In this document: positions 1 to 21,100 of the stretch, piece by piece
Numbering within the stretch: position 1 is the first letter of the stretch
Layout of the letters: each line of letters opens with the position of its first letter
NCBI GenBank assembly: GCA_028293465.1
Contig: JAQGOT010000131.1
Coordinates: 1 to 28,011 of the forward strand
DNA: 28,011 nucleotides
From: Pedosphaera sp.
GTDB taxonomy: Bacteria > Verrucomicrobiota > Verrucomicrobiia > Limisphaerales > Pedosphaeraceae
Direction: 5' to 3'
Made by a program: the position numbers and the translations under genes
The notes under the pieces: generated by a model
Told to the model about the DNA's origin: nothing
Databases searched by the model: none
The model's input: only the letters and a program-made list of their open reading frames with translations

Positions 1-1428
1 CCGTGACGGACGGGAGAGGCCGGAGTTGATCTTCAAGGCCGCGCTAAACTCGGCAAACCAGGTTTTCAGTTCGGGCGGTGAGGGATCAAACGGATTCAGC
101 AGGTTCAGCGGGTTGATGCCTTCCACGCCAATGATTTCCCAATCAATGGAATACGGCGGTGCGTGTTCCCGCAGCAAATGCATGATTTGCGAGCGCGCAT
201 GGGCGCGGGAGTCAGAGGGCGGTTCCATTATCGAGGCCTCAATCACTTTGTCTGAGAGATCCCAGGCCGGCGGTGGTTGGCTCATGGCCCAGCCCAGGCT
301 GCGGGTTGGATCGATGTGATGAAATTCCAAATCCTGCGCCTTCAGCCACGGATCATCCCAATCAATCTTCTCCTGCTCCATGAATTTCCGGAGCAACCAC
401 CGTTTCGTGATCCAATCCACCTTGCCAATCAAGGCTTGCGGCTCCAGCGCCAAGGCCTTCAACGTGGAACCCCAGACATCCAGCAATACATCAGTCTCGG
501 TGTCGCGTCCGTGGAACTCCGTCCAGGCGGCGTCGAAAAATTTCTGCAACAGTTCCACCGCATCGGTGGACCGGCCGTCCGCGAGTCTCACCTGCCAGGG
601 CCCGTCCGGTTGATGCGACATGGCGCGGAAGGTCTTCACCGCGTCGGCCAGCACCAGCTTCGGCAAATGATTAATTTCCAGCAGATCGAGCATCAACGAC
701 GTGGTGCCGACCTTCAACAGCACGGTGGCGGGCAGCACACTGGTGTCCCCGTGCAGCAAATGTAACCGCCGGAACTTGCGGGGATCGCCTAGCGGCTCGT
801 CCCGCGTGTTTATGATGGAGCGGTTGAACTGTACCCATTCGTACAAGTCGTTGTTGATGTAATCCGCCCGCTGACTCATCTGGTAAACGCCATCCGAACC
901 CGGCCGGCTGATTTCCCCCCGCCACTCCGCCGCCAGCGTGGTTCCCACGCGCCCGGCCCCCGTGTAAAGCAGGCGCAAGGTGAGAAATGTCAGCAGCGAG
1001 AGCACGTTGGTTTCGGTCAAGGGAGCCGAGCGGCGCACGAGGTAATTTTCGTGGCATCCGAAAGTCGCCCCCGTGTAATGGTCGATGTTGTTGCGGATGA
1101 AACTGACTTCGCCCGCGAGGCCCAGCGACTTGAGGGCGTGCACCGCCAAGGCATCCCCGGCGCGGTCGTACTTGAGGATGTCGATCAGGGAATAGCACTC
1201 CGGCGTGCAATATTCAAGGTGCCCCATGTCGATGTAAACCCGCCCGCCATTAAACAGAAAACCGCCGTTGCCCGGCGGTTCGTCCCAATCGCGGTGATGC
1301 ACATCAATCAACCCAAATTCTTCGCGTCCAAAAATCCAATCGCGCACGCGCTCGACGGCGATGAAAGAACCCGCCGGCGTGTTCGTCAGACAACCATATT
1401 CTGTTTCCAGTCCTGCTATACGATTCAT
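1..1428 (-). CDS. pafA: PafA-like Pup/UBact-protein ligase (3' end runs off the window; missing from ORF track)
   Basis: Hand translation from ATG at 1428 is open to position 1 (476 codons): MNRIAGLETEYGC (GhExE motif), NGGRVYIDMGHLEYCTPEC, NNIDHYTGATFGCHENY, QRAD, INTRDEPL, FRRLHLLHGD. Lacks the Dop-type DHAH motif and Dop loop. Last gene of an arc-dop-modifier-prcB-prcA operon. Confidence 0.9.
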   Translation of the reverse strand, partial: MNRIAGLETEYGCLTNTPAGSFIAVERVRDWIFGREEFGLIDVHHRDWDEPPGNGGFLFNGGRVYIDMGHLEYCTPECYSLIDILKYDRAGDALAVHALKSLGLAGEVSFIRNNIDHYTGATFGCHENYLVRRSAPLTETNVLSLLTFLTLRLLYTGAGRVGTTLAAEWRGEISRPGSDGVYQMSQRADYINNDLYEWVQFNRSIINTRDEPLGDPRKFRRLHLLHGDTSVLPATVLLKVGTTSLMLDLLEINHLPKLVLADAVKTFRAMSHQPDGPWQVRLADGRSTDAVELLQKFFDAAWTEFHGRDTETDVLLDVWGSTLKALALEPQALIGKVDWITKRWLLRKFMEQEKIDWDDPWLKAQDLEFHHIDPTRSLGWAMSQPPPAWDLSDKVIEASIMEPPSDSRAHARSQIMHLLREHAPPYSIDWEIIGVEGINPLNLLNPFDPSPPELKTWFAEFSAALKINSGLSRPSR

Positions 1429-1553
1429 AAGCTACTCCCGGAGTCCAGACGGTTTGCCCGCGGGATTGGTAAACGCGACCGGAACAACTCCTTTACTCCA
1501 GTGATCCCGAATCCAGCAGCTCGCGCCGGCTTGGTCAGGATCTATTTCAAAAT

Positions 1554-2294
1554 TCATAAGCCGGCCTGCGCCAGGCTTAACGGCTCATAACGAGCATGCC
1601 GCGGACTATTCCGCGCCAGCCAGCCCAGTTCCACCACCCGCTCGCTGGAGCTCGCCCGCCAGCCAGCCTGACGTTGGGCCTCTTCCGGCAGCCCTTCACC
1701 AAAAGGCTTGTTCTCCACCAAGCACCACCAAGCCTGCAACAGCACATCCGCAACCTCCCGACGGTCGGTCTTGCCCGCCAGCGATCCGTTCAGCCACGCT
1801 TGGGCGGCCGCTTCCGGTTCCGGTTGGCTGGCGGCGACCATCACTCCGCCCGCTTGAAACCTGAAACCGCCGTCAAAGTGCAGCCGCAACAACAAATCTT
1901 TCTCCGGCGCATTGCCAATCTCCGCCAGGAGCAACTCCACCAGAAACGGGGCGGTGAAGATCTGCTCAAAGTTGGTCTTCAACTGCGGGCTCAATCCAAA
2001 ACTCACCAACCGCCGCAGGCTCACGTCCTCGGGTGCCCGGGTGAACGACTCCGTGTGCGCCGCGTCGATGGCCGCCTGCCTGATCTTTTCAATATCCGCC
2101 GGATGCCCCAATCCCGCCAGCGCGTGACGGTCAAATAATTCAAAAACCTTCGACTGCCCCCCGCCGACAGCGAGCAACAAGATGCCATCGGGCAGGCTGG
2201 CCGCGAACGCGGGCGAACCTCGCTTGAGCTGTTCGCGCACGTATTCACGGCGGTTCGCCACCGCCTCCAACCACCGATATGGTTCTTCAGTCAT
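1554..2294 (-). CDS. prcA: 20S proteasome alpha subunit, bacterial type
   Basis: 246 aa; RREYVREQLKRGSP, KVFELFDRHALAGLGHPADIEKIRQAAI, RRLV, PFLVELLLAEI and LHFDG align by eye with actinobacterial PrcA; directly downstream of prcB. Confidence 0.9.
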   Translation of the reverse strand: MTEEPYRWLEAVANRREYVREQLKRGSPAFAASLPDGILLLAVGGGQSKVFELFDRHALAGLGHPADIEKIRQAAIDAAHTESFTRAPEDVSLRRLVSFGLSPQLKTNFEQIFTAPFLVELLLAEIGNAPEKDLLLRLHFDGGFRFQAGGVMVAASQPEPEAAAQAWLNGSLAGKTDRREVADVLLQAWWCLVENKPFGEGLPEEAQRQAGWRASSSERVVELGWLARNSPRHARYEPLSLAQAGL

Positions 2295-2390
2295 CGAGTT
2301 TGATTCCTTCTTAACCCTAATCCTGATTCCAATCCTCTCAAGTGAAGAGTCTGAGTGTGCGGGCGGTTAAGAGCTCCTCCTCACCTCTTG

Positions 2391-3164
2391 TTATATCTTA
2401 AGAAAACCGGACTGCTGTTGATCCGTGATGGATTCCACGCCGCTGCTGCGGAGCAGCTTGATGGTGGCGTAGGTTTGGGTCGCGGGATTCACCCCACCCG
2501 TCGCGGAGTCGAACTCCGAGGCCACCATCAACAGGCGCAGGGCAAATTTGACCGCCTCACCCAGCTTCATCTGGGAGGGGCGCGGGCTGCCGTATTGCTC
2601 CTGGAAGCTCAACACGCTCCGGATCGTCCCCGAGCCCGATCCGGAGGCGACGTAGTCCACGGATTGAAATTGCGCCCCGAGCGGGTCGTAGAAATAGATC
2701 TGGGGTTTGGCCGGAGAAACAGTTTGATCCAAGCCCGCGAACAGCGGGGCCACCACCCCGACGCCTTGCATGGTCATGGGCAGATTCTCGCGCAACAACC
2801 GGGCCAGGGCCCGCACCTTCGCCGGGAGGCTGAGGGGTTGTAACTGGCTGCGCCGGTAATACTCGAAGGAAGTTTGCAGGACACGGGCCATCTCGAAAGC
2901 GGTGGCTGGGACACCGGCAATGGCGAGCAGGGAGGTTGCGTCAATCTCGATGACCTTGTCCACGCGATCGGTGACAATGACGTTACCCGCAGTGGCGCGC
3001 CGGTCACCGGCCATCAACACCCCCTCGGCGAACTCGAAAGCAAAAACGGTCGTTGCCTGCGTCTGCACCGGAGCGGTGGACGCAGGAACGATGGGAACAG
3101 GCGCCAGCTTGTGGGTGGCGAGCAGGGACATGAAGTCACCCGCAATCAGCGTCCCGGGGTTCAT
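2391..3164 (-). CDS. prcB: 20S proteasome beta subunit (Ntn hydrolase) with 37-aa propeptide
   Basis: Mature start TTVFAFEFAEGVLMAGDRRATAG with Thr1, Asp17 and Lys33 at canonical spacing, plus the GSGS motif; ATG overlaps the modifier stop codon (ATGA). Confidence 0.95.
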   Translation of the reverse strand: MNPGTLIAGDFMSLLATHKLAPVPIVPASTAPVQTQATTVFAFEFAEGVLMAGDRRATAGNVIVTDRVDKVIEIDATSLLAIAGVPATAFEMARVLQTSFEYYRRSQLQPLSLPAKVRALARLLRENLPMTMQGVGVVAPLFAGLDQTVSPAKPQIYFYDPLGAQFQSVDYVASGSGSGTIRSVLSFQEQYGSPRPSQMKLGEAVKFALRLLMVASEFDSATGGVNPATQTYATIKLLRSSGVESITDQQQSGFLKI

Positions 3165-3331
3165 TGGCCCGTTCTTTGGCGATACCTTTTAGCCTGGTCC
3201 GGATCCACTTTGCGCATCCGTTTCAGGAGCTCCTCCGTGTTGGGTTTTTCTACCTTGGGTGAATTAGGTCCCTCTCCGCCGCCGCTTGGGCCAGCGCCGG
3301 GAGGCCGGTTTTTTTGTGCTTGGTCTGGCAT
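3161..3331 (-). CDS. ubact: UBact, ubiquitin-like/Pup-analogous protein modifier (56 aa; missing from ORF track)
   Basis: Hand translation: MPDQAQKNRPPGAGPSGGGEGPNSPKVEKPNTEELLKRMRKVDPDQAKRYRQRTGQ*. Disordered Pro/Gly-rich N-terminus, C-terminal G-Q, occupies the pup slot between dop (14-nt gap) and prcB (ATGA overlap). The C-terminal half matches the UBact pattern as I recall it. Confidence 0.92.
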   Translation of the reverse strand: MPDQAQKNRPPGAGPSGGGEGPNSPKVEKPNTEELLKRMRKVDPDQAKRYRQRTGQ

Positions 3332-3345
3332 AAACTTGTTAACAA

Positions 3346-4869
3346 TTATGACATCAATTTCAGCATTCGCAAATCCTCCGGCGAACGCGCCTCGTCGATG
3401 TGTCTAGCATACCGCGAAATCTCCTCGGGCGCGAACAAATCCATGAAAGAAATTTTTATCGGCCCGTCCTGTCCCCGCAGGGTGATGTGGTCCCATTGCG
3501 CTGATTCCACGGCGTCTGCGAATTTCTGGATGAGCTTGCCGCGCAAACAAGCCCGGGTGGTCGCGGGCGGTTCGCACATGGCCCAGCGCACCGCCGTTTC
3601 CTCCGGCACGCCCAACATGGCCCCACTCTGTTCCAAGCCGTAGTACAAACCTTCCGCCAGATCCAGCCGGTGATATTCCAAATCCAGACTCTGCAGCCAC
3701 GGGTCGTCCGGGGCCAGGTTTTGTGCCGCTTGAAATTCCAGCACCAACGCCAGTTTGGCCACCCAATCCAGCCGGTTGCGGCAACGCATCACGTCCGCCT
3801 CCAGGTCGTTCAGCACCTGCTCCCAGTCCGCCACCACGGCCTCCCGGGCGGGTGAGCTGAGATCACACAACTCCCTGACCGCCGCCAGGTAATCACGTTG
3901 CACTGCCAATCCGGTTGAGGGGCGCGCACCCTGCAACTCAAGTTCCCAGCGGAAGGAAGGATCCCGCGAAATGGCCGGCAAGGCCTCCAGCGGCTCCGCC
4001 AGTTGCGGCCAGGCCCGCCGCGGATCACGCACCAGGGCCTCCAACACCAACCCGGTGACACCGATCTTCAGCCGGGTCGCAAACGGCGACATATTGGCAT
4101 CGCCGATGATGACATGAAACCGCCGGTAGAGTTTGGGATTGGCGTGCGGTTCGTCGCGGGTGTTCACCAGCGGCCGGCGTTGCATGGTGTCCACGCTTTG
4201 CAGCTCGCTGAAAAAATCGCTGCGTTGCGCAATCTGGAAGTGGGACGAGATGAACCGATCCTCTTCCTCGATGGCGAACTTGCCCGCGCCGGCAAAAATT
4301 TGACGCGTGACCAGGAACGCCTGCACACCTTGGGCCAATTGTCCCCAGGGCAGCGCGCGGGTGAGCAGGTAATTCTCGTGGCAGCCGTAGCTGTGGCCGC
4401 GGAAGTCAGTGTTGTTTTTGTAAAGCCGGACGGTGTCCCCGCGCTGGGCGGAGAGCTGTTGCGCGCACGCCATCATAATGCGCTCCCCAGCGCGGTCCTG
4501 CGCCAGCAACTCGTCCAGCGTGCTGCATTCGGGGGTGCAATATTCGGGGTGGGCGTGATCGTTGTAGAAGCGCGCGCCGTTGCCCAGCACCAGGTCGCTC
4601 TTGATTTCGACGTAGCTCAGCTCGCGGTGAGAGTCCTGCGCGAAATAGTTGGCCTCGTCCGTATCCTGGCGCAACTCCGGCACGTGAAACCCGCGCATGT
4701 CCGCGTGCGGATCTTCACTGTCATAATCCCAACGCATCAAAACGCCGGGCTCGACCACACTGCGCACCAACGCGATGGATTCGGCCACCACGTCCAGGTG
4801 CTCATCGTGCTCGCGGGCGATGCCGATCTCCGTCTCGATCCCGAACTGGATTATGTTTGACGGGGTCAT
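3346..4869 (-). CDS. dop: Dop-like deamidase/depupylase (PafA/Dop family)
   Basis: FGIETEIG (GhExE), Dop-loop-like RWDYDSEDPHADMRGF, NGARFYNDHAHPEYCTPEC, SYGCHENY, RPLVNTRDEPHA, RRFHVIIGDANMS. Start moved from TTG 4965 to ATG 4869, just before the conserved motif (507 aa). Confidence 0.9.
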   Translation of the reverse strand: MTPSNIIQFGIETEIGIAREHDEHLDVVAESIALVRSVVEPGVLMRWDYDSEDPHADMRGFHVPELRQDTDEANYFAQDSHRELSYVEIKSDLVLGNGARFYNDHAHPEYCTPECSTLDELLAQDRAGERIMMACAQQLSAQRGDTVRLYKNNTDFRGHSYGCHENYLLTRALPWGQLAQGVQAFLVTRQIFAGAGKFAIEEEDRFISSHFQIAQRSDFFSELQSVDTMQRRPLVNTRDEPHANPKLYRRFHVIIGDANMSPFATRLKIGVTGLVLEALVRDPRRAWPQLAEPLEALPAISRDPSFRWELELQGARPSTGLAVQRDYLAAVRELCDLSSPAREAVVADWEQVLNDLEADVMRCRNRLDWVAKLALVLEFQAAQNLAPDDPWLQSLDLEYHRLDLAEGLYYGLEQSGAMLGVPEETAVRWAMCEPPATTRACLRGKLIQKFADAVESAQWDHITLRGQDGPIKISFMDLFAPEEISRYARHIDEARSPEDLRMLKLMS

Positions 4870-4873
4870 TTGT

Positions 4874-4984
4874 TTAATCGCCGGTGGAACCGGAGGTTTC
4901 TCGAAAGAGGAGGGTTGGCATCGGACCTTTGCGTGGAATCGAAGGAGGCAACTTTTCAATCTCAACTTCGAGTCGCTTTTTCAT
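4874..4984 (-). CDS. Putative 36-aa small protein between arc and dop
   Basis: ATG 4984 to TAA 4874: MKKRLEVEIEKLPPSIPRKGPMPTLLFRETSGSTGD*; co-oriented, stop codon 4 nt before the dop ATG. No family recognised. Confidence 0.3.
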   Translation of the reverse strand: MKKRLEVEIEKLPPSIPRKGPMPTLLFRETSGSTGD

Positions 4985-5032
4985 CCCTGGTACCGGTTTG
5001 GCCCAGCCGATGGCATCGTGGGCAACCTTTGA

Positions 5033-6730
5033 TTATACGACGCCGCTCCCCAGCGCATCCTTTTTAAGCTGGCGCACCGGGCCGAGCTTGATGACGTTCT
5101 CCGGATCGAAGTCGGTCAACTTGAGCCAGTCCTCCGTTACGTCCGTGGGCGGGAAGAGATCGTTTTCCTCATACTCACGCTGCAAGGCGCGCAACAAATC
5201 CTCCCGGGTCAGATGGGTTTCCTGGCCGGTGTCGATCGAGCGTTTGATGGCAAAACTCTTCGCCCGCTCTACCACCGCCGCAATGATCGCCCCGCTCGCG
5301 AGATCGCCGCGATACAGGAAATCCTTCTTGCCGCTCCGGAACACAATTTCCAGGAACTGGTTTGAGGGCGTGTGGGAATAATGCGCCTCGGTCACCACCC
5401 GCGCCAAATCCGCGCGTGGTTCGGCCAAAGGCAGGCTTTCGCGCAAATAGATTTCGTAGATGGCCTGTGCCCCAGCTTGATCCGGCCGGTTCACCTTGAT
5501 TTTCCGGTCGATGCGTCCCGGCCGCAGGATCGCCGGGTCGATCAGGTCCGCCCGGTTCGAGGCGAGAATCACCACCACATTCTGCAACACCTCCAACCCG
5601 TCCATCTCCGTGCAGAACATCGGCACCAAGGTGCTGAGAATGCTGTTATAACGGCCGGCGCGGCGTGTCCCCAGAATGGATTCCGCCTCGTCGATGAAAA
5701 GGAATGCCAGCGCGCCATCCCGGGCGCGTTCGCGGCATTGGATGAAAAGGTCGCGCACCTGTCGCTCGGATTCCCCCACCCACATGTTCAAGATTTCCGG
5801 ACCTTTGACATGCAGGAAGAATTCCGGATGGTCCACACCGGTTTGGGCCTTGAGTTGTTGCCGCAGATTGTAAGCGGTGGCTTTGCCGAGCAAGGTCTTG
5901 CCGCAACCCGGCGGTCCGTGCAGCAGAAAGCCCTTCGGCACCGTGTGCTCGAAACGCTTGAACAGATCTCGATGCAGGAAGGGGAGTTCAATGGTGTCAC
6001 GAATCGCCTGCACCGCCTCCGTTTGGCCGCCCACGGCGGCCCACGGGATTTCAGTGACCGTCTCCAGGGAGCGTTCGATGCGCCGCCCCATGCCGATCAC
6101 TTCCAGCGCGACGCGTTGGTTGACATCCAACCGCACCTCCATGCCAGGCTTCAGTTTTTCCTTCACCAGCAAAGCGGAGCGGAGGAGCACCAGCGAATTG
6201 AAGCCCGCTTCCTGCCCGATGCGCAGCCGTCCATCGGAAAGCAGTTCATCAATTCGGACAATCGGCCCGTTCTTGTCAAAGCCCAATCCCTGCACCACCG
6301 CGAAAGCTTCGTTGCAGAGGACCCGCTGCCCCATTTGCAGACTGTTCTGCGGGATCTTGGGGTCAACGCGGCAGACGTAATCAGTGCCGCCGACACAAAC
6401 GTGCGCTTTGTCATTTTCCACCGGCATCAAGAAGGTGCCGATGCGGAAGGCCGGCGAGCGGAGCTTCTCGACAATTTCGTCCAGCTTTTCAATCGCCTGG
6501 CGGGCTTGATCGTTCTGCTCCTCGATCGCGGTAATACGATCGCGGAGATAAATCAAATCCATCAGCGAAGAATGGCGCGGGGGCAATTTGCCCGCAATAA
6601 TGTCAACGAGTTGAAGGGCGGAAAGCGATTCTAACTCCTCGTGTGAAAGCATCTGACCAAGCGGTGAGGCTCCCTCCGTGGGGGACTCAATCTTGGGCGA
6701 TGGCGTTGGTTTTTTCTTGGATTCACCCAT
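5033..6730 (-). CDS. arc: Proteasome-associated AAA+ ATPase (ARC/Mpa family)
   Basis: N-terminal coiled coil, OB-like region, Walker A GPPGCGKT, pore loop VKGPEILNMWVGESE, Walker B FIDEAES, second region of homology ASNRADLIDPAILRPGRID. First ATG at 6730 (6736 is TTG); heads the proteasome operon. Confidence 0.95.
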   Translation of the reverse strand: MGESKKKPTPSPKIESPTEGASPLGQMLSHEELESLSALQLVDIIAGKLPPRHSSLMDLIYLRDRITAIEEQNDQARQAIEKLDEIVEKLRSPAFRIGTFLMPVENDKAHVCVGGTDYVCRVDPKIPQNSLQMGQRVLCNEAFAVVQGLGFDKNGPIVRIDELLSDGRLRIGQEAGFNSLVLLRSALLVKEKLKPGMEVRLDVNQRVALEVIGMGRRIERSLETVTEIPWAAVGGQTEAVQAIRDTIELPFLHRDLFKRFEHTVPKGFLLHGPPGCGKTLLGKATAYNLRQQLKAQTGVDHPEFFLHVKGPEILNMWVGESERQVRDLFIQCRERARDGALAFLFIDEAESILGTRRAGRYNSILSTLVPMFCTEMDGLEVLQNVVVILASNRADLIDPAILRPGRIDRKIKVNRPDQAGAQAIYEIYLRESLPLAEPRADLARVVTEAHYSHTPSNQFLEIVFRSGKKDFLYRGDLASGAIIAAVVERAKSFAIKRSIDTGQETHLTREDLLRALQREYEENDLFPPTDVTEDWLKLTDFDPENVIKLGPVRQLKKDALGSGVV

Positions 6731-6736
6731 GACCAA

Positions 6737-6764
6737 ACCTTAGTCCTGTTCCGGGCAATTGCAA
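6737..6764 (-). promoter_or_regulatory. Candidate sigma70-type promoter for arc (TTGCAA-N16-TAAGGT), possibly giving a leaderless mRNA
   Basis: On the minus strand TTGCAA (6764-6759), 16-nt spacer, TAAGGT (6742-6737), then 6 nt to the ATG at 6730; no obvious Shine-Dalgarno. Confidence 0.35.
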
Positions 6765-6902
6765 ATCGCAGTCCATCTTTTCTAAAATAAAAATGCGCGG
6801 TTAAAATGTTTTCTGCTCAACGTCTCCGCGTGGAGGGTCGCAGCGTCCTGAGTCAACCGAAAATGTTTTGCTAAACCACCCGGGAGAGCGGGAGAAGCGG
6901 GA

Positions 6903-6922
6903 CAGCCTTTTCGGAAAGGCTG
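6903..6922. other. Perfect 8-bp hairpin downstream of the DUF883 gene
   Basis: CAGCCTTT-TCGG-AAAGGCTG; no U-tract on either strand. Confidence 0.4.
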
Positions 6923-6966
6923 GATTGGGATGTTTGGTTTAACGCCGGTCACACAGGAGGTGATGA

Positions 6967-7269
6967 TCAAGTTCCAAGCGGGTCAACATTTTTAATATTG
7001 GCGTTCATCCTCCTCGTTGTCCTTGCGTTGGAAAACGCGTTGCGAGCCAGCACCCCCAGGAGAAATCCCAAGCCAAAGGCCAGGCCCATGCCGGGATAGG
7101 GGTTCCGACGGATGCTTGCGTCTGCCGCGCGAGCGCCCGCCCTGGCTTTCTGCTGCAACTGGCCCGCCCCGGATCTAAGGAGTTCCTCGCCATCGCGGAC
7201 CACCACCCGCAAATCATCGACCAACCGCTGCAGCGTCATGGCGTTGCCATTGTGATTTTCAGGTATCAT
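6967..7269 (-). CDS. ElaB/YqjD (DUF883) family small tail-anchored membrane protein
   Basis: LVDDLRVVVRDGEELLR...KARAGARAADASIRRNPY..GLAFGLGFLLGVLA: amphipathic helices followed by the typical (R)xNPy plus C-terminal hydrophobic helix. Confidence 0.8.
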   Translation of the reverse strand: MIPENHNGNAMTLQRLVDDLRVVVRDGEELLRSGAGQLQQKARAGARAADASIRRNPYPGMGLAFGLGFLLGVLARNAFSNARTTRRMNANIKNVDPLGT

Positions 7270-7355
7270 ACAACAGGTGATTTCCTACCTTCATAATCAC
7301 CCCACTGCATCGCCCAGCCAATGGGGTATTTCCCATGTTCTTCCGTCCTTTCAGA

Positions 7356-8555
7356 TCAGCCGCCAAATCTCCTCCTGTTTCCGACATTGACCTCGGCCGC
7401 GCCCACCCTGGTTGCCAACCGATTGGACTCGATTTCGGTCAGATCCGTGTTCACGAGCAGGATGGATTTGGGCTTGCCCTGCTCGGTGCGCATCAACGTC
7501 CAGCGGCTGTGCACGCGGACCTCATGCCCATCTTTGGCGACTTGGTGCAGGTCTCCGCTCCAGGCACCTTGTTCCATGACGGTCTTCTTGGCCGCTTCAA
7601 ATTCGCCGTGGTCGGGATACAACAGTTCGGTGGCCGGCCGGCCCAAGATTTCGTCCTTCGTCCAGCCATACAAGCGCACAGCGCCTTCATTCCAGAATTG
7701 GATGCGGTCCTCCATGTCGCGCACCAGGATGGCATCCGGGTCCAGGTCGAGCAAGCGGGCCTGCTCCTGGATTTGCTCCGCCGCCAGCTTGTGGCCGGTG
7801 ATATCGTGATACAAGCCGATGAGCAACTTGCGCCCGTACAAAATCAACGGCGAAACGCGAACCTGCACCGGCACACGCGCGCCATCCGCCCGGACGATTT
7901 CATCCTCATAGTCCATGGTGGACGTTTGCCCGTTCTCAGCGACAAACCGGCGCCGATGTTCTTCAAATATCTCGGGTGACTGAAACTGGCTCTGGTTCTT
8001 GCCGACGATTTCACTCCGGCTGCGGCCAAGGAGGGCCTCACCTTGTTTGTTGGTGTCTAGGATGCGGCCGGTCTGGACATCCGTGAGAAAGGCGGCGTCG
8101 CCCAGGCTTTCAAACAACTGGCGGTATTTATGTTCGGATTGGCGCATTGCCTCTTCCGCCCGCTGGCTCTCGTTACGCTCCTGTTGATCGCGTAACGCCC
8201 GACGCACAGCGGGGCCGAGACGCGAGAGCCGGTTCTTGAAGATGTAATCCGTGGCGCCTTGCTTCAAGCTTTCCACCGCCAGCTCCTCGTCGATGGTGCC
8301 CGAGACGAAGATGAAGGGCGTCCCGGGCCGCCGGTCTCGCGCCAGCTTCAAAGCGCGCATGCCGTCGAACGAAGGCAGTGTGTAATCCGAAAGGATGCAA
8401 TCAAACTCCCGTTCGCAGAGGGCGGCCAGGAAAGTTTCGCCCGTGTCCGCGCTCACCACCTCGCGCGACAATCCTTCGGCCAGAAGTATTCGCCGGATGA
8501 GTTCGGCATCGTGCCAATCGTCCTCCAGGTGCAAAATGCGAAGTAAAGTATTCAT
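7356..8555 (-). CDS. Receiver domain plus two PAS domains, with no kinase or other output domain
   Basis: ILHLEDD, ILSDYTLP (phospho-Asp), FIFVSG, GATDYIFK = REC; then YRQLFESLGDA...PAS and LLDLDPDAILVRD...WNEGAVRLYGW...PAS. ATG 8555 chosen (399 aa), 10 nt after the GH2 stop. Confidence 0.85.
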   Translation of the reverse strand: MNTLLRILHLEDDWHDAELIRRILLAEGLSREVVSADTGETFLAALCEREFDCILSDYTLPSFDGMRALKLARDRRPGTPFIFVSGTIDEELAVESLKQGATDYIFKNRLSRLGPAVRRALRDQQERNESQRAEEAMRQSEHKYRQLFESLGDAAFLTDVQTGRILDTNKQGEALLGRSRSEIVGKNQSQFQSPEIFEEHRRRFVAENGQTSTMDYEDEIVRADGARVPVQVRVSPLILYGRKLLIGLYHDITGHKLAAEQIQEQARLLDLDPDAILVRDMEDRIQFWNEGAVRLYGWTKDEILGRPATELLYPDHGEFEAAKKTVMEQGAWSGDLHQVAKDGHEVRVHSRWTLMRTEQGKPKSILLVNTDLTEIESNRLATRVGAAEVNVGNRRRFGG

Positions 8556-8565
8556 AATATCCAAA

Positions 8566-11457
8566 CTACCATTCAATAATGACCGTTGGGCAGACGGGAT
8601 AGCGGCCACATTCCGCACCATAAACCGTCAGGCCGCCTTGCGCCAACGCGTCGGCGGGCACCACCAGCCGCAGGTGCACGTGATCGTCCAGGGTGTGGCG
8701 GGCAATCTGTTGCAGTTGCTCGTCCTCCGCAAAAGCGTGAGCCAAATAGCCATAAGCTCCCAGTCCGCCGCGCAGGTAGCTCAACGCCCCGCGCGCATCA
8801 TGCGGATGATTCCGGACGAACGCGCCGTACACTTGGATCCCGTTCAAAAACATCTGGAGCGTGGTGGGGAAGATGTCGTCATCGGTCTGTGGAGTGTCGA
8901 TCCGATGCGAGGAGACCTCGGCCAGGACGCGGATGCGTCGCGCCTTCGAGATGTCCGCACCCTCCAACGGCAGGACCCACTCGAAGAAGCCGTGGCCTTG
9001 GCCATAACAGGAATCCTCCGCCCTTTCGCGCTCGCGCTCACCCGCCCCGCCGCTCCATTCCGCGGTGGCCCAGTCACCGGGCGGGCCCCGCAGCACGAGT
9101 GCCCGGGGGACATCCTCGCGGCTGGCGGGATATTGGTCGGACACAAAATACTGGTGAAAATTCTTCGCGATGACGGTTCCTTCCGCATTATAAGCCTCGA
9201 CGCAGAAGGTGCAGAGCATCGGCTCCGCAGGCATTTGCATTTCGATGGTATGGGCATGCACGACACGCCGATGAGGGAACTCGATCGGCACACTCCCGCG
9301 CGCGAGATCCCGTTGGACGCGGCCGCGCGTGTCCATGCCATCCAGGCGCCAGCGCAATGAAATATTCCGGTTGGGCCGGGACGAGAAATGGGAAGAGGCC
9401 ACGTCCACGCGCACCACCTCGCCGGGGGAACGGCGGGAGATGGGTGCCGCGTCCAACGGCAACGTATCGCTTTCATTGATGATGGCAGGGTCGTAGCCAA
9501 ATTCCTTCGGCGTCCGGTCGTAATTCAGGAAGCCATTGTGCTCCCATTCGACATCATGAAGCTCCGTGAAAATGTAAGCGGAAATCTGCCCGTATCGGCG
9601 CAACTCATTGGTCAGAAATTTGAACGTCCAACTGACATCCACGTCGCCATCCAAGGCCCCCACCCCGCCGTATTCGCTGTTGATCAGCGGCTGGCCTTTG
9701 TGCGCATAGCCGGGCACGTAATTGTAGTTGGAGCCGGGGAACGTGGACTGCACGACCTTGGCAATGTGCTCCTTGGCCCGGGCATAATCATTGATGTAAA
9801 AATGCCATGAATTGATGTCGGTATCGCCGTGGGCATAATAATCCAGATGCTCCCATTGGACGACGCTCATGTCCTCGATCAGCCGGGTGGGGTCCAGCTT
9901 TTTCGCCAACGCCCACATGCTTTGCACCCACACGTGCGCACTAAGGTTCGCGAGCCTGGCCCGGGTCGATGGCGGGGTCAGTTCCGCCACGGCCGTCGCC
10001 CCCGCACTCACAGCGCTGGCGGAAACCGCCAGATTGGTCCTCAATCGCGGCCGGTGTTTGGGAGTGGTGGGATGGATGAGATCCACAAACTCCACCTGTC
10101 CACCAAAGCCCCAGGTTTCGTTGAAGGTGCACCAGGCAAAGATGGAAGGGTGGTTGAAATCCCGTTTGATGGCTTCGCGCATCGTAGCTTCGTAGCGTCG
10201 CCGTCCCAGCGGCGTGTCGCCCCCTTCGCCGAAGTTCGGAAAGTCCGCCATCAACAACATCCCCATCTTATCAGCGTAGTAAAGCAACAGGGGGTCATCG
10301 ATCTTGATGTGGATGCGCAGGAAGTTAAACCCCACCTTCTTGGCATACGCGATATCATTCTTTAACGTTCGCACGTCTCCGGCGGTATAGACCCCGTCCG
10401 GGTAAAAGGATTGATGCAAGGCCCCACGCAGGTAGCGCGCCACGCCGTTCAAGCGCAGAGCCACCGGGGCTTCGGGGGGCTCGCCGGGCGCAAAGTCAAT
10501 TTTCCGCATGCCGAAATAGCTCCGGACCGTGTCCATCACCCGGTCCTGCTGCCGCAAATGGAACCGTAGTTTGTAGAGATGAGGTTCATTGGGGCTCCAG
10601 AGCAACAACGGATCGACCTTCATGGTGCCTTCGGCCATCCCGGTACTGACTTTGAAAGTAGCGGTTTGCGGGGTGCGGCTGTCCGGCGCAATGATTTCCA
10701 CCGCCACCGTCCCCTCGCCCTCAACGTGCTGGCACTCGATCTGAAACCGTGCCGTGCCGGCGTCGATGTCCGTGAACACGCGAAAGTGATCAATATACGA
10801 AGCGCTGCGCGGCTCGACGAACACAGTTTGCCAAATGCCGCTGACGGTGGTGTACCAGCGCCATTGTTTGCCGACGGGTTGCTCGTGGTTATCCACCGGA
10901 TCTTCCACGCGGAACACCAGCAGGGCGCGTCGTTTGCCATCCGTCCCGGGTTCCCCCAAGGTGTCGGTGAGATCGAATTCAAACGGGGTGTAACCGCCCT
11001 CGTGATGGCCGAGGTGTTTGCCATTCGACCAGCAATCGGTAAAGAAGTCCGCTGCGCCGATGGTTAGAATGACGCGCTTGCCCTCCCAATCCGGGTTATT
11101 CGGAATCTCGATGAGGCGCCGGTACCACCCCACTTCATACCGGGGGGCGGAGCGATGATTGGCGGCGTTTACTTCCAGCGGGTTGAGGAACACGCGCGTG
11201 GCGTAGTAGTTCTCGTTGCCGGCGGCATCCCCCTCCCCCCAGGCGGCAAGCGATTCCCAGCAAAAGGGAACGATGATTTGCTCGCGCCATTCCAATTCGT
11301 CGGGGCGGAACCATTCTTCCTCCACCCCGCGCCGGTGCCGGTCAAAACGGAACTGCCAGGGGCCATTTAAATTTAACCAATCAATCCCCTCCCGGGTGCC
11401 CCGCTGGCGGTCGGGCCGGGGATACTCTGGCCGAGGATAGGCAAAAGAAATCGACAT
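8566..11457 (-). CDS. Glycoside hydrolase family 2 with a long C-terminal extension
   Basis: YPRPEYPRPD, WLNLNGPWQF, HEGGYTPFEFDLT, SGIWQTV, GFNFLRIHIK, WCTFNETWG (acid/base Glu), PLINSEYGG (nucleophile Glu). ATG 11457 chosen (963 aa); no signal peptide seen. Confidence 0.9.
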   Translation of the reverse strand: MSISFAYPRPEYPRPDRQRGTREGIDWLNLNGPWQFRFDRHRRGVEEEWFRPDELEWREQIIVPFCWESLAAWGEGDAAGNENYYATRVFLNPLEVNAANHRSAPRYEVGWYRRLIEIPNNPDWEGKRVILTIGAADFFTDCWSNGKHLGHHEGGYTPFEFDLTDTLGEPGTDGKRRALLVFRVEDPVDNHEQPVGKQWRWYTTVSGIWQTVFVEPRSASYIDHFRVFTDIDAGTARFQIECQHVEGEGTVAVEIIAPDSRTPQTATFKVSTGMAEGTMKVDPLLLWSPNEPHLYKLRFHLRQQDRVMDTVRSYFGMRKIDFAPGEPPEAPVALRLNGVARYLRGALHQSFYPDGVYTAGDVRTLKNDIAYAKKVGFNFLRIHIKIDDPLLLYYADKMGMLLMADFPNFGEGGDTPLGRRRYEATMREAIKRDFNHPSIFAWCTFNETWGFGGQVEFVDLIHPTTPKHRPRLRTNLAVSASAVSAGATAVAELTPPSTRARLANLSAHVWVQSMWALAKKLDPTRLIEDMSVVQWEHLDYYAHGDTDINSWHFYINDYARAKEHIAKVVQSTFPGSNYNYVPGYAHKGQPLINSEYGGVGALDGDVDVSWTFKFLTNELRRYGQISAYIFTELHDVEWEHNGFLNYDRTPKEFGYDPAIINESDTLPLDAAPISRRSPGEVVRVDVASSHFSSRPNRNISLRWRLDGMDTRGRVQRDLARGSVPIEFPHRRVVHAHTIEMQMPAEPMLCTFCVEAYNAEGTVIAKNFHQYFVSDQYPASREDVPRALVLRGPPGDWATAEWSGGAGERERERAEDSCYGQGHGFFEWVLPLEGADISKARRIRVLAEVSSHRIDTPQTDDDIFPTTLQMFLNGIQVYGAFVRNHPHDARGALSYLRGGLGAYGYLAHAFAEDEQLQQIARHTLDDHVHLRLVVPADALAQGGLTVYGAECGRYPVCPTVIIEW

Positions 11458-11976
11458 AATAAAAGACTGCTCTCTAGAAAGGGACAGGAACCCGGACTTC
11501 CTGCTCAAAAACCGGTGGGTTTGGACACGGATTGTTTTTTCGGGCGGAATCCTGAGGTTGTGACGCCTCAGTTCCGCGATGGCCTGACATGACCCGGCGG
11601 TTTCAGTGATAGAGCATCACCAGTCCTCCTCTACGTAAAGCCGCTTTGGGTTATCGTCAAATCCCACAGCCAAAGAAAATGTGGTTAAGCAAAAACTTCT
11701 TTTGGTGCCGCTTCCGACTTGGCCCACGCAGGCTGAGTTGGGGTGTAACACGGTGGCATGTACATTTCACTAAATTGGTCTTAATGATTACGCCAGAGTC
11801 AGTTTGCGTTGCATGCGATCCTCCTCCCACCCCGAAAAGCCCTTGGCGCGAGTGCTTCTTGCCGCCGTGAGAGCTGCTGGCTTGCGCCGGATTATCGGGC
11901 ACGGGAGATGGCCCGCGAGGGCGTGCGGTGGGGGATGGAAGGTTTCGGTTATCATGCGGGTAGGAACAGGCGTGCC

Positions 11977-13209
11977 TCAGGAAGCCCTTAAGCTTGCCTG
12001 GCGCCGCCGTTTCAACGTCGGCGCGCTGCCATTACCATTCCCATTTAAGTGCAGAGGAAACGTCACGGCCGTCAGCTTCGGCTCGTATTCCAACTCAATG
12101 GCCTCGGCGCGGCTCAGCCCGGCCATTTGCGCAAAAACCGTCAGGGCCTGGGCCGCCACCTGGTCCATGTTGTAATAACGGTAGGTGGCAAGCCGGCCCA
12201 CAAAGTGTACTCCATTCGTCGCCTCGGCGAGCGCCTGGTACTTCCTGTAGAGTTCGGCATTTTCCGCGCGGGGAATGGGATAATAAGGATCGCCCTCCGC
12301 CCGCGAGAATTCATAGACGATGCTCGTTTTGGCGTGTTCCTGGCCGGTGAGATGTTTGAACTCGGTGACCCGGGTGAAGGCGTAGTCGTTGGGATAATTA
12401 ATCACCGCGACCGGTTGCAGGAATTCCTTGTTGTGGGTCTCGTGTTTGAATTCGAGGCAGCGGTAGGGGAGCTTCCCGTGGATGAAGTCGAAATATTCAT
12501 CGACCGGGCCGGTGTAGATCAACTCGCGGTACGGGATGAGCTCCCGAATCTCCCGGTAATCGGTGTTGAGCATGACCCGAATGTTGGGATGGTCCAACAT
12601 GCTCTGGAACATGCGGGTGAACCCGTGACGCGGCATCGCCTGATACGTGTCGGTGAAATAGCGGGCGTCACGATTGGTGCGCGTCGGCACGCGGGCGGTC
12701 ACCTGCGCATCGAGTTCCGAAGGGTCCAGACCCCATTGTTTGCGGGTGTAACCGCGAAAGAATTTCTCATAAAGCTCGCGTCCGACCTTGCTGACCACCA
12801 CATCCTCCGAGGTTCGGATTGCCTCTTTTTTTTCGGCCCGGCTGGCCAGGAAGTCATCCATTTGCAGCGCGGTCAATTCCAGCCCGTAAAGCTGGTTGAT
12901 GGTATCCAGGTTGATGGGAATGGGCACCAACTGCCCGTCCACGCTCGCCAGCACGCGGTGCTGGTACTGCCGCCAGGCGGTAAACCGCGAAAGGTAATCA
13001 AACACTTCACTGCTGTTGGTATGAAAGATGTGCGGCCCATACTTATGCACCAGGATGCCGGCATCATCGTAATGGTCGTAAGCATTGCCGCCAATATGAG
13101 GCCGCCGATCCACCAACAAGACCTGTTTACCGCAACCCCGGGCCAGCCGTTCCGCCAGAATGCTGCCGGCAAATCCGGCCCCCACGATCAGATAATCGAA
13201 CATCTCCAT
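11977..13209 (-). CDS. glf: UDP-galactopyranose mutase
   Basis: FDYLIVGAGFAG (FAD binding), HIGGNAYD, HKYGPHIFHTN, YTRKQWG, EGDPYYPIP, GRLATYRYYNMDQ; GGGAGG ribosome site just before ATG 13209. Confidence 0.97.
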   Translation of the reverse strand: MEMFDYLIVGAGFAGSILAERLARGCGKQVLLVDRRPHIGGNAYDHYDDAGILVHKYGPHIFHTNSSEVFDYLSRFTAWRQYQHRVLASVDGQLVPIPINLDTINQLYGLELTALQMDDFLASRAEKKEAIRTSEDVVVSKVGRELYEKFFRGYTRKQWGLDPSELDAQVTARVPTRTNRDARYFTDTYQAMPRHGFTRMFQSMLDHPNIRVMLNTDYREIRELIPYRELIYTGPVDEYFDFIHGKLPYRCLEFKHETHNKEFLQPVAVINYPNDYAFTRVTEFKHLTGQEHAKTSIVYEFSRAEGDPYYPIPRAENAELYRKYQALAEATNGVHFVGRLATYRYYNMDQVAAQALTVFAQMAGLSRAEAIELEYEPKLTAVTFPLHLNGNGNGSAPTLKRRRQASLRAS

Positions 13210-13241
13210 TGGTCCTCCCCGGTTTGGCATTTGTGCGACCA

Positions 13242-14561
13242 TCAACGTTTTCCCCCCCCCTTCACGGTCGCTGCCCGCTTGCGTGCCAGTGCATCGTCAA
13301 TGTGGGCCTCCATCTTTTCCACGATCGAATCCCAGCTGTTGTCGGCCGCCATTTTCAATCCCCGCTTGATGGCGGACGCATCCGCGCCGGCAATGGCCTG
13401 CCGACACAATAATATAAATGCGTTATGAGACCGGGCGACTTTGACCACGGATCCAAAATTGTGCACCACATCTGATACTGCGGAGCTGACAACATTCTTG
13501 CCCGTGGCCATGTATTCGAGGGCTTTGGTGGGATTGATGTATTCCGTCGCTTCATTGAGGGCGAACGGCATCAGGCAGACATCAAAGGCCTTGGTATAGG
13601 CCGGCAGTTCGGCGTAGGGACGCTGGCCGAGCCAGTGCAGGTTGGGCCGTTTTGGCAACGCGTGCTCTCTCACCTTGATAACCGGTCCGATCATCGCCAC
13701 GGACCATTGTGGGTTTGCATCGGCCAGCTTCGCCAGCAGTTCATAATCGATCCGCTCATCGATGACTCCGAAATAACCGAGCACATGGGGACCCAGATTC
13801 TTGACTCCGGCCGGGACCAGTGTCTCGACATCCCGCGCGCGGCCGAAGTGGTCAACGTCCACCCCGCAGCCGTAGAAGTGACAGTTTGCGTTGTGTCGGC
13901 TTTTGGCTTCGTACAGTTTTCGTCCGCCGGTGAACACCACATCGGCCCGCGCCAACAACTCCGCTTCTCGCCGCGCCAATTCGGGGTGCGCCTCGCTAAA
14001 CTTGGAAAGCTCATCCATGCAGTCGTACACCGTCGCGATTTCGCCCAGGTGTCCGGCAAAAGCGGTGACGGTCATGGGATCGTAAAACCACTGGACTGCA
14101 TCTTCAAACTGCCCGGCCAACGGTCCCAATAACGCTTCCTGGATCACGCGGCGGCGGGTGCGGTCCACATAAACCGACTGTCCCCAGCGCCAGGCAGGAA
14201 ATTGCAGGCGTACGCGGGTGATGTTGGGATAGTCCGGAGTCGGCAGAATGCGAACCGAGGGTGTGACCAGTTGCGGGTCCGGTCCCATCGTCTCCACGAA
14301 CAGAATCGGATGGCGCTGACTCAGGCGCGAGAGAAATTGTTGCGGGCGCTGCCAGACCCAGTCCCAACAAAGATGGCAGTGAACGATGATGGGATAATTA
14401 TCTGACCGGAATAATGCCTTGGCCTTGGCGCGGGGCGTTCCCTTTTTGCGTGGTATTCGGTCGGAGGTTTTAGAGTCTTTGACACGGGTAAGAAAATGTT
14501 GTTTTGCGGAATTACTCCGTTCGGATGAGCTTGAATCAGAGCGATAAGGCGCGTAGGACAT
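13242..14561 (-). CDS. GT-B fold glycosyltransferase (GT4/TuaH-like), co-transcribed with glf
   Basis: HLCWDWVWQRPQQFLSRL, VYDCMDELSKF, ADVVFTGG, GYFGVIDERID, DVCLMPFALNEATEYINPTKALEYMATGK; first ATG at 14561, preceded in the protein by about 55 low-complexity residues before the fold starts. Confidence 0.9.
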   Translation of the reverse strand: MSYAPYRSDSSSSERSNSAKQHFLTRVKDSKTSDRIPRKKGTPRAKAKALFRSDNYPIIVHCHLCWDWVWQRPQQFLSRLSQRHPILFVETMGPDPQLVTPSVRILPTPDYPNITRVRLQFPAWRWGQSVYVDRTRRRVIQEALLGPLAGQFEDAVQWFYDPMTVTAFAGHLGEIATVYDCMDELSKFSEAHPELARREAELLARADVVFTGGRKLYEAKSRHNANCHFYGCGVDVDHFGRARDVETLVPAGVKNLGPHVLGYFGVIDERIDYELLAKLADANPQWSVAMIGPVIKVREHALPKRPNLHWLGQRPYAELPAYTKAFDVCLMPFALNEATEYINPTKALEYMATGKNVVSSAVSDVVHNFGSVVKVARSHNAFILLCRQAIAGADASAIKRGLKMAADNSWDSIVEKMEAHIDDALARKRAATVKGGGKR

Positions 14562-15715: not shown

Positions 15716-15752
15716 GGGGCAGCTTACACCAAGGGTGGGGTATCATCAGAGA

Positions 15753-16793: not shown

Positions 16794-16851
16794 TCCAACC
16801 AAAGAAACCTAAACCGCCGGAAGAATCAATAAGAGAAAGTGGACGCGGCAA

Positions 16852-20991: not shown

Positions 20992-21100
20992 TTGTGAACA
21001 AGGAATTCTTCAGGCTTCAAAATGCCAAAGATGCAGACGACTGAGCCGTATTGCCATTCAATCCAATTTGCTTGACGGGGCGCAAGACCAAATCCCGGCT

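Follow-up and report, generated by a model that had tools for sequence, protein, structure and literature searches.

The window analysed here is an entire contig, 28,011 nucleotides in length, from a Pedosphaera-like soil MAG. Its minus strand carries, within positions 1–6730, six co-oriented genes in the order arc, dop-like, UBact, prcB, prcA and a second Pup-ligase-family gene, exactly as described in an initial annotation of the sequence, and a genome search found each of them (UBact included) in a single copy. The UBact stop codon and the prcB start codon share an ATGA, read in the sequence at 3164–3161, which is the one overlap that had been reported. The genes had also been called tightly spaced; this holds for the junctions of 14 and −4 nt, but not for the remaining three (from arc to the ligase end, the junctions measure 163, 14, −4, 96 and 125 nt). 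At those three junctions the gaps of 96–163 nt are long enough to accommodate internal promoters. No terminators exceeding shuffle expectation were found within the operon. The 236 nt region 5′ of arc (6731–6966) is the only long non-coding stretch upstream of the operon and presumably contains its promoter; a consensus scan of the minus strand of this region returned no sigma-70-like site.

The six genes form a genuine, intact operon for UBact tagging and bacterial proteasome degradation in an uncultured soil verrucomicrobium. The earlier description of the operon as intact stands insofar as all frames are open and all six genes keep their catalytic or docking residues, with the qualification that the last gene is clipped by ∼5–8 codons: the window being the whole contig, this gene runs off the contig end.

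The first gene (5033–6730, minus strand, with an ATG start at 6730) encodes a 565-residue Mpa/ARC-type proteasomal AAA+ unfoldase, comprising an N-terminal coiled coil, two OB domains and an AAA module. It matches Pfam AAA (8e-30), Prot_ATP_ID_OB_N (8e-21) and Prot_ATP_ID_OB_C (3e-9), as well as TIGR03689 (5e-126, 421 bits against a cut-off of 505), and its AAA module contains Walker A (GPPGCGKT), Walker B (FIDE) and pore loop (W-V-G) motifs. Its best solved relative is Mpa of M. tuberculosis (E 1e-93 over residues 42–550). The second gene (3346–4869, minus strand) encodes a Dop-type deamidase/depupylase of 507 residues, with its start, judged by relatives, at the ATG of M33 of the longest open reading frame. 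The protein matches Pfam Pup_ligase at 6e-142, scores higher with TIGR03688 (418 bits) than with the PafA model TIGR03686 (323 bits), and aligns with Dop in the PDB (4B0R, 2e-98) across the Dop loop, versus 2e-59 for PafA. It carries the Dop loop and the active-site motif D-H-A-H-P-E-Y, keeps 50 of 52 family-invariant positions, and is placed within the Dop superclade in a phylogenetic tree.

The third gene (3161–3331, minus strand) encodes UBact, a ubiquitin-like modifier of 56 residues that exceeds the cut-offs of both PF20513 and NF033388 (3e-24 in each case); its comparison with Pfam Pup gave no match even at E 10. The N-terminal half is rich in Gly and Pro, the C-terminal half is basic (net charge +5), and the protein ends in R-T-G-Q. 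Hardly any variation is seen among 36 relatives in the last 28 residues, which close with Q or E depending on the lineage.

The 20S proteasome beta subunit PrcB (2391–3164, minus strand, 257 residues) was assigned by Pfam Proteasome (4e-27) and TIGR03690 (152 bits). A propeptide of 37 residues precedes the catalytic Thr1, which is T38 and aligns with position 1 of the mature Rhodococcus and Mtb beta chains; Asp17, Lys33 and the DSATGG motif are also retained. The residue at −1 is Ala rather than Gly, a departure found throughout the family. The alpha subunit PrcA (1554–2294, minus strand, 246 residues) is divergent, with no Pfam match and just 58 bits against TIGR03691, and was identified by AF2/Foldseek and a profile search. 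It is predicted to adopt the 20S alpha fold: the AF2 model (pLDDT 90.6) has the Mtb and Rhodococcus 20S alpha chains as its top Foldseek matches (E 2e-14, TM 0.7–0.83), and the profile search reached Rhodococcus/Mtb PrcA at 6e-16. Its activator-pocket lysine, K49, aligns with the Lys of the K-[VI]-S-E-L-Y-D-R segment of those proteins and is invariant among relatives.

The last gene (1–1428, minus strand) encodes a second Pup-ligase-family enzyme, the presumed UBact ligase, of which 476 residues are present; relatives measure 481–484 residues, corresponding to a loss here of ∼5–8 C-terminal residues. Its earlier designation as ‘pafA-like’ is sound at the family level (Pup_ligase 2e-107), but the protein passed no PafA-specific test, and the ligase role is therefore assigned by elimination. 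Both Pup-ligase paralogues, the only two family members in the genome, retain the G-x-E-x-E, N-G-x-R-x-Y-x-D, H-x-E, G-x-H-E-N, N-x-R-D and R-R-x-H cores; this one keeps 46 of 52 family-invariant positions and has signatures of its own (D-M-G-H-L-E-Y-C-T, W-V-Q-F and D-E-P-L). Its AF2 model (pLDDT 89) resembles PafA–Pup (4BJR) and Dop (7OXY) alike, at TM ∼0.8.

The profile searches and the synteny comparison that the initial annotation had proposed assigned all six families with strong E-values, except by Pfam for PrcA, and recovered the same gene order in ∼30 loci of Verrucomicrobiota, ranging from Pedosphaera/Limisphaerales to Methylacidiphilum and down to 50% identity. An identical order in ∼30 independent loci shows that the arrangement is not due to chance; in more distant relatives the junctions are mostly −4 overlaps. 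All six genes are under strong purifying selection, with dN/dS of 0.02–0.10 (0.05–0.10 for UBact). In a metatranscriptome library from the same study, arc, UBact/prcB and prcB are represented by short contigs, evidence that is contig-level, comes partly from a related strain and is open to DNA carry-over.

Family assignments, catalytic residues, selection and synteny all support the original proposal that this verrucomicrobium carries a complete operon for UBact-type tagging, tag removal and the 20S proteasome. By analogy with the actinobacterial Pup-proteasome pathway, we consider it probable that the locus is a functional UBact-proteasome system that works in the same manner. UBact would be synthesised with a C-terminal Gln, which the Dop-type enzyme would deamidate to Glu. 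The second Pup-ligase-family enzyme, with ATP, would phosphorylate the gamma-carboxylate of this Glu and then link it to the epsilon-amine of a substrate lysine. An ARC hexamer could capture the tag via its N-terminal coiled coils and thread the disordered N-terminus of UBact through the W-V-G pore loops, unfolding the substrate, which would enter a PrcA7-PrcB7-PrcB7-PrcA7 barrel and be cleaved at the Thr1 sites; Dop may also remove the tag. The literature that we searched held no biochemistry for any UBact system, and for that reason we infer each of these steps by homology; what the locus itself documents is gene content, order, residues, folds, selection and phyletic conservation.

Tagging and the proteasome might instead be only loosely coupled, with UBact serving mainly regulation or ARC-only remodelling, in the way that proteasome-less Corynebacterium uses pupylation, and the 20S particle acting with another activator or alone. 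The ARC tail bears directly on this alternative, which we regard as unlikely. It ends in G-V-V, and the family pattern is G-[V/I]-[V/I] instead of GQYL, with [V/I][V/I] as the final two residues in 42 of 44 relatives and a penultimate tyrosine in none of the 44. In Mpa the penultimate tyrosine of the GQYL tail is the main determinant of 20S binding (PMC8755798), and an ARC without a GQYL/HbYX tail may not dock on the 20S particle as Mpa does; in ∼10 related genomes, moreover, arc-dop is separated from UBact-prcBA-ligase. Against this, the terminal two residues of ARC are conserved behind a variable linker in the alignment of relatives, as is typical of a docking tail. The PrcA pocket lysine is likewise invariant, arc adjoins the proteasome genes in most loci, and no gene for another activator was seen in the locus or among neighbouring genes.

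A coupled UBact-proteasome pathway also depends on a ligase, and the enzyme at 1–1428 appears from its residues to represent a third lineage, one that is without PafA or Dop signature residues across the family. It might accordingly be a second hydrolase or a family regulator, with ligation carried out by the Dop-type enzyme or an unlinked protein. The Dop and PafA models score it equally (264 bits for TIGR03688, 261 for TIGR03686), both far below cut-off; it is ‘neither’ at all six columns that discriminate PafA from Dop; and it belongs to a distinct, well-supported clade that neighbours the Dop superclade (SH-aLRT 86) and not canonical PafA. A helical alpha-loop marks ligases (Hecht 2020, PMC7947786), but here that loop is modelled as a low-confidence strand and coil, with V-Q in place of two Thr conserved in Dop and PafA. 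We nevertheless judge this reading to be quite improbable. The Dop loop is absent, the catalytic Asp is followed by a hydrophobic residue and Gly as in PafA (versus His in Dop), the ATP and Mg core is preserved, and a topology grouping the enzyme with canonical PafA is not rejected by an AU test (p 0.38). A ligase is required, the genome offers two family members only, and the other is clearly Dop-like; loss of the Dop loop together with a changed alpha-loop is sufficient to turn a hydrolase into a ligase (Hecht 2020, PMC7947786).

That the operon is a decaying, functionless relic of horizontal transfer has almost no chance of being correct: the system occurs only patchily in the phylum (12 of the 401 genomes sampled) and a few relatives (L045, L047 and L057) have broken prcA, prcB or ligase frames, but the open frames and intact catalytic residues, a GC content that matches the surrounding contig and an order kept across order-level divergence all oppose it, and the dN/dS values effectively refute it.

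The six-gene UBact operon is already described in this phylum and catalogued in public databases, and the present example is correct but ordinary. As the initial annotation acknowledged, the system class is not new: Hou (2008) presented the proteasome neighbourhood of Methylacidiphilum infernorum (PMC2474590), Iyer (2008) reported ‘Pup orthologs’ in verrucomicrobia and nitrospirae (PMC2588565), and UBact was named by Lehmann, Udasin, Livneh and Ciechanover (2017, BBRC 483:946, PMID 28087277), as cited in PMC12751074. Its expectation that modifier and ligase would both escape standard annotation is largely incorrect: UBact is detected by NCBIfam NF033388 and Pfam PF20513, and orthologues appear in NCBI records as ‘ubiquitin-like protein UBact’ and as ‘proteasome accessory factor PafA2 family protein’; at JGI, those of the ligase are called ‘proteasome accessory factor A’. 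UBact is omitted, and PrcA called hypothetical, only in some non-PGAP annotations of MAGs, such as that of Pedosphaera sp. RYN_627.

Compared with other Gram-negative UBact loci, the operon shows the same six genes, order, phylum and R-T-G-[E/Q] tag end, and no difference of kind; what sets it apart is its origin in a Pedosphaera-like soil MAG, the wider spacing of three junctions and the truncation of its last gene by the contig end. It aligns gene for gene with the Methylacidiphilum and Methylacidimicrobium loci at 39–72% identity, with a terminal Gln in place of the Glu of Methylacidiphilales. With the actinobacterial Pup system (M. tuberculosis Mpa, Dop, Pup, PrcB, PrcA and PafA) it shares gene order and six roles, a Dop with its Dop loop, a Thr1 beta subunit with propeptide, an ATPase of coiled coil, OB domains and AAA module, a disordered tag with a Gly-Gln/Glu end whose terminal residue varies by lineage, and the glutamine-synthetase-fold chemistry of both enzymes. 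It differs in its diderm host, in having UBact (PF20513) rather than Pup as the tag, with a single Gly preceding the last residue and the +5 C-terminal half, and in the scores of the five enzyme and subunit proteins, all under TIGR equivalog cut-offs. Three family-wide departures remain: the ARC tail (G-V-V versus GQYL), the third-lineage ‘ligase’ outside the PafA equivalog, and the PrcB Ala before Thr1. The Pup-like loci of Rhodopirellula and Plesiocystis (Iyer 2008, PMC2588565), also outside Actinobacteria, share a small G-[E/Q]-ended tag adjoining a Pup-ligase-family gene; they contain a single paralogue and lack genes for a proteasome or an ATPase, whereas the operon described here encodes two paralogues along with ARC and both 20S subunits.

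The initial annotation read positions 1–6730 as a complete ubiquitin-like tagging and 20S proteasome operon, with six co-oriented genes in the order arc, dop, small modifier, prcB, prcA and a pafA-like gene. Family assignments by Pfam and NCBIfam confirmed six open frames in that order, all on the minus strand, and the reading was correct: this is a genuine and intact operon on which selection acts. The HMM searches proposed there as a check matched the UBact, Pup_ligase, Proteasome and AAA models, with PrcA the one product lacking a Pfam match. The ATGA overlap that had been described is present, shared between the stop codon of UBact and the start codon of prcB, and the remaining junctions measure 163, 14, 96 and 125 nt when taken from ARC towards the ligase; the description of the genes as tightly spaced holds for two of the five junctions but not for the other three, which are wide. 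The window is one entire 28-kb contig of a 5.1-Mb metagenome-assembled genome (MAG) that is 75% complete; all six operon genes are single-copy in that genome, and the GC content of the operon is that of the rest of the contig. Pairwise dN/dS values against three close relatives fell between 0.02 and 0.10 for every gene of the operon, UBact and PrcA among them, and on these values a reading of the operon as a relic or a set of pseudogenes was rejected.

The tag is encoded at 3161–3331 (minus strand), between the Dop-type gene and prcB, a position that it also occupies in ∼30 related loci. It exceeded the cut-offs of both existing models for the family, with 84.9 bits against a cut-off of 27.8 for PF20513 and 85.1 bits against 35 for NF033388 (3e-24 in each case), and its length of 56 amino acids and C-terminal R-T-G-Q fit the family trait of ∼50–60 residues ending in R-[T/S]-G-[E/Q]. 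Assignment of the tag to Pup itself was rejected, since PF05639 gave no match to it even at an E-value of 10. The C-terminus reads R-T-G-Q or R-T-G-E in 36 relatives, the last residue being glutamine in most Pedosphaera-type loci and glutamate in the Methylacidiphilales and a few others. This is the same toggle between glutamine and glutamate that is found in Pup, and the glutamine-ended tags fit a deamidation step.

An enzyme that could perform such a step is encoded at 3346–4869 (minus strand; start codon placed at the ATG common to all relatives). The protein matched Pup_ligase (PF03136) at 6e-142 and scored 418.5 bits on the Dop model TIGR03688 versus 323 on the PafA model, the former lying below the equivalog cut-off of 492.3; two of its clade mates in the family tree (P0147 and P0143) scored 484 and 472 bits on the same model. 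The protein is Dop-like and falls just outside the actinobacterial equivalog. The Dop loop of ∼40 residues is present, with 94 residues separating G-x-E-x-E from the catalytic aspartate (versus 61 in the other paralogue of the operon), and the alignment to the structure 4B0R runs through that loop. The motif D-H-A-H-P-E-Y places His-Ala after the catalytic aspartate with no one-residue insertion, which is a Dop trait (Hecht 2020, Table 1; PMC7947786). In the family tree the protein falls inside a Dop superclade of 68 rows (SH-aLRT 99), the identity of which was verified with NCBIfam on representatives, and among 52 positions at which neither canonical Dop nor canonical PafA varies it retains 50. 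In every respect tested except the equivalog score, the protein is a Dop.

The sixth gene (1–1428, minus strand) is truncated by the contig end; its product measures 476 amino acids versus 481–484 in relatives, so that only a few codons are missing. The initial annotation had called it pafA-like, a label that stands at the level of the family, where the product carries the Pup_ligase core (2e-107), but not below it: the scores for PafA (TIGR03686, 261.2 bits) and Dop (TIGR03688, 263.9 bits) are nearly the same and both far below cut-off (551.3 for PafA), and at all six columns that discriminate PafA from Dop the residue corresponds to neither. The Dop loop is absent (the spacing being 61 residues), and alignment with Dop begins only after it. 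PafA-specific features include D-V-G-S-H with a one-residue insertion and A-T-A after E-Y; the corresponding segments in this enzyme are D-M-G-H without insertion and C-T-P. It keeps 46 of the 52 positions invariant in Dop and PafA, and the ATP, magnesium and carboxylate core accordingly looks intact.

Neither phylogeny nor structure prediction served to decide between the two identities. The enzyme belongs to a clade of its own, made up of UBact-associated enzymes (SH-aLRT 99), which lies beside the Dop superclade (SH-aLRT 86). Its union with canonical PafA was not rejected in an AU test (p 0.376), which rejected neither placement, and the deep nodes of the tree are weak (SH-aLRT 13–86). The alpha-loop, described as the switch between ligase and hydrolase by Hecht et al. 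2020 (PMC7947786), folds as a helix in PafA; in the AlphaFold2 (AF2) model this region (residues 188–203) is a strand plus coil of low confidence (pLDDT 67–69, and below 50 at 199–201), and Foldseek matched the model equally to PafA-Pup (4BJR) and Dop (7OXY), with TM-scores of ∼0.8. What points to ligase function is elimination: tagging of this kind requires a ligase, no more than two members of the family are present in the genome, and the other one is plainly Dop. We refer to the enzyme as the presumed ligase and do not file it as PafA.

The ATPase ARC (5033–6730, minus strand, with its ATG at 6730) contains an N-terminal coiled coil, followed by both proteasomal-ATPase OB domains and the AAA domain as matched in Pfam, with Walker A GPPGCGKT, Walker B FIDE and a W-V-G pore loop of the Ar-Hb-Gly type. 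It aligns to Mpa of Mycobacterium tuberculosis (Mtb) over residues 42–550 (1e-93) and matches the proteasome ATPase model TIGR03689 at 5e-126, its score of 421.4 bits being below the equivalog cut-off of 504.75. The pore loop differs from the F-V-G of Mpa (PMC8755798), as does the C-terminus, where Mpa carries GQYL, a motif with tyrosine next to last (PMC8755798), and ARC ends in G-S-G-V-V (window 5033–5047, minus strand) without GQYL. Among relatives the last two residues are [V/I][V/I] in 42 of 44, behind a variable linker (the exceptions being M-V and A-I), and none has a penultimate tyrosine; the tail is G-[V/I]-[V/I] as opposed to GQYL, even though the activator-pocket lysine of PrcA is invariant.

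PrcB (2391–3164, minus strand) matched Proteasome at 4e-27 and TIGR03690 with 152 bits. Its T38 aligns with residue 1 of the mature Rhodococcus and Mtb beta subunits, with aspartate at +16, lysine at +32 and DSATGG kept, so that the propeptide and Thr1, Asp17 and Lys33 are all in place. The residue at −1 of the processing site (residues 37–38; window 3051–3056, minus strand) is alanine rather than glycine, giving an Ala-Thr site in place of the usual Gly-Thr; this position is alanine in Pedosphaera-type relatives and serine in the Methylacidiphilales, among which one locus (L067) has alanine. In the host genome PF00227 matched PrcB only and HslV was not detected, a result from a 75% complete genome that does not amount to absence.

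Sequence support for PrcA (1554–2294, minus strand) was thin, with 58 bits on TIGR03691, and we therefore modelled it with AF2, using 25 aligned orthologues as input. With a pLDDT of 90.6, the resulting structure best matched the 20S alpha chains of M. tuberculosis and Rhodococcus in Foldseek (E ∼2e-14, TM-scores 0.7–0.83), and the alignment profile matched the same chains at 6e-16; PrcA is accordingly predicted to have the alpha-subunit fold. Its invariant K49 aligns with the activator-pocket lysine of those chains, which lies in their K-[V/I]-S-E-L-Y-D-R segment.

A search with the Dop-type protein, restricted to one genome per species, recovered 51 loci, nearly all of them in Verrucomicrobiota MAGs. 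The nearest (83–86% identity) bear the labels Pedosphaera sp. or Verrucomicrobia bacterium, and the proteins of two cultured genera, Methylacidiphilum and Methylacidimicrobium, share 51–54% identity with the Dop-type protein. Public runs in which the sequence occurs come from metagenomes of soil and permafrost. The labels of the relatives and the public runs indicate that the verrucomicrobial host label is right, in agreement with the initial annotation's 'probable verrucomicrobium'. Synteny, also proposed there as a check, was compared by running all six proteins of the operon in tblastn against the 51 loci, and the full order ARC-Dop-UBact-PrcB-PrcA-ligase was found in ∼30 of them, with successive genes overlapping by 4 nt in many relatives. 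About 10 other loci (L034, L036, L038, L039, L041, L044, L052, L070, L071 and L074) hold arc-dop without the remainder nearby, UBact-prcB-prcA-ligase not lying within 8 kb. Pup_ligase genes occur in 12 of 401 genomes sampled evenly across the phylum, and 11 of those 12 carry two copies; taken with the gene order kept in ∼30 loci, these counts describe a system that is sporadic but stable where present.

Several individual loci deserve comment. In G330, a genome from the same order, separate contigs carry the two Pup-ligase paralogues. Three loci (L045, L047 and L057) have prcA, prcB or the ligase gene in two or three tblastn pieces or with internal stops, and these broken frames reflect faulty assembly or else an operon that is decaying in the lineages concerned. 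Two others, labelled Haliangiales (L035, with all six genes) and Baltobacteraceae (L044, with arc-dop only), contain operon genes of verrucomicrobial type with 71–78% identity to the window, and their contigs are probably mis-binned rather than products of transfer.

One metatranscriptome from the same study (n = 1) yielded only contigs of 150–270 nt, on arc, UBact/prcB and prcB, for which DNA carry-over is possible. The one contig that crosses the UBact-prcB overlap has 11 mismatches and therefore derives from a relative. Promoter and terminator scans gave nothing above the level expected from shuffled sequence, the region upstream of arc showed no promoter on the minus strand, and an Rfam search of the whole window returned no match.

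By homology with the Pup-proteasome system, we propose a pathway in which Dop would deamidate the terminal glutamine of UBact, the second enzyme would activate the new glutamate with ATP and ligate it to lysines, ARC would recognise the tag and unfold the substrate, and PrcAB would degrade the unfolded chain; Dop may also remove tags. The literature that we searched contained no demonstration of any of these steps in any UBact system and no published test of UBact conjugation to lysines. Three departures from the Pup system (the ARC tail, the ligase lineage and the alanine at −1 of PrcB) are family-wide and not specific to the window; they make the reading that the system works like Pup slightly less certain in its details, and are the one source of novelty here, a modest one. 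It is conceivable, although we think it rather unlikely, that the verrucomicrobial UBact system does more than replicate the Pup pathway, the enzyme that attaches its tag belonging to a third Pup-ligase lineage devoid of both PafA and Dop signature residues and its unfoldase perhaps docking through the G-[V/I]-[V/I] tail and not through GQYL/HbYX. If so, ligase specificity and the coupling of ATPase to proteasome would follow rules other than the mycobacterial ones.

To our knowledge, bacterial proteasomes with ubiquitin-like tagging are rare, and Actinobacteria are the only group in which they have been studied. The operon is a known kind of system in a known phylum, and the initial annotation rightly treated the class as not new, the UBact operon being already published and UBact itself having models in Pfam and NCBIfam. 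Proteasome subunits and accessory genes were described in Methylacidiphilum infernorum by Hou et al. 2008 (PMC2474590), and for verrucomicrobia and nitrospirae Iyer et al. 2008 (PMC2588565) described Pup-like tags accompanied by proteasome genes and a pair of PafA paralogues; Lehmann et al. 2017 gave UBact its name and listed the homologous components of conjugation and of the proteasome in Gram-negative phyla. Our search found no bench test of this diderm version, which genome studies of 2008 and 2017 had brought to light. As one more intact copy of a known system, from an uncultured soil organism, the window opens no new question alone. Its use is comparative: together with ∼50 related loci it reveals features fixed in the clade, namely a tag whose C-terminal half is basic and nearly invariant and whose last residue toggles between Q and E, the non-GQYL tail of the ATPase, a ligase lineage distinct from PafA and alanine or serine at the beta processing site. 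These are concrete targets for reconstitution, for which cultured Methylacidiphilum would be a better source than this MAG.

The further expectation that standard annotation would miss both tag and ligase proved mostly wrong, given the existing Pfam and NCBIfam models and the NCBI and JGI records of orthologues, which name both. NCBI uses 'ubiquitin-like protein UBact', '20S proteasome subunit A/B' and 'proteasome accessory factor PafA2 family protein', orthologues of the ligase appear in JGI as 'proteasome accessory factor A', and among the records inspected only one, a non-PGAP MAG, lacked UBact and had PrcA as 'hypothetical'. In one related locus (L027), the PrcB orthologue at 9829–10599 (GenBank MBI3414217.1; Thr1 and propeptide present) is named 'proteasome subunit alpha' by NCBI and the name '20S proteasome subunit A/B' is given to the real alpha orthologue, which looks like a mix-up of alpha and beta labels in public annotation.

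Neighbouring frames were considered as further parts of the system and rejected. A 36-aa ORF in the arc-dop spacer (4874–4984, minus strand) has no Pfam match, and none of the 51 related loci, in some of which arc and dop overlap and in others of which they stand more than 200 nt apart, has a counterpart there; it is most likely not a gene. Upstream of arc, positions 6967–8621 (minus strand) encode a 100-aa ORF with a weak match to the DUF883 glycine-zipper family, seen in no related locus, and a response regulator that carries two PAS domains. Outside the window the regulator gene is found only in the two nearest relatives, complete in L054 and partial in L026. The genes downstream of the operon in the closest relative (amidase, MscL and CopC) are all unrelated. 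The rest of the window, 8566–28011, holds ordinary housekeeping and carbohydrate genes, among them those for a GH2 glycosidase, UDP-galactopyranose mutase, a glycosyltransferase, an enolase-superfamily enzyme, an FG-GAP protein, MnmG and phosphoglucose isomerase, and a 1379-aa ORF is present at 16852–20991.
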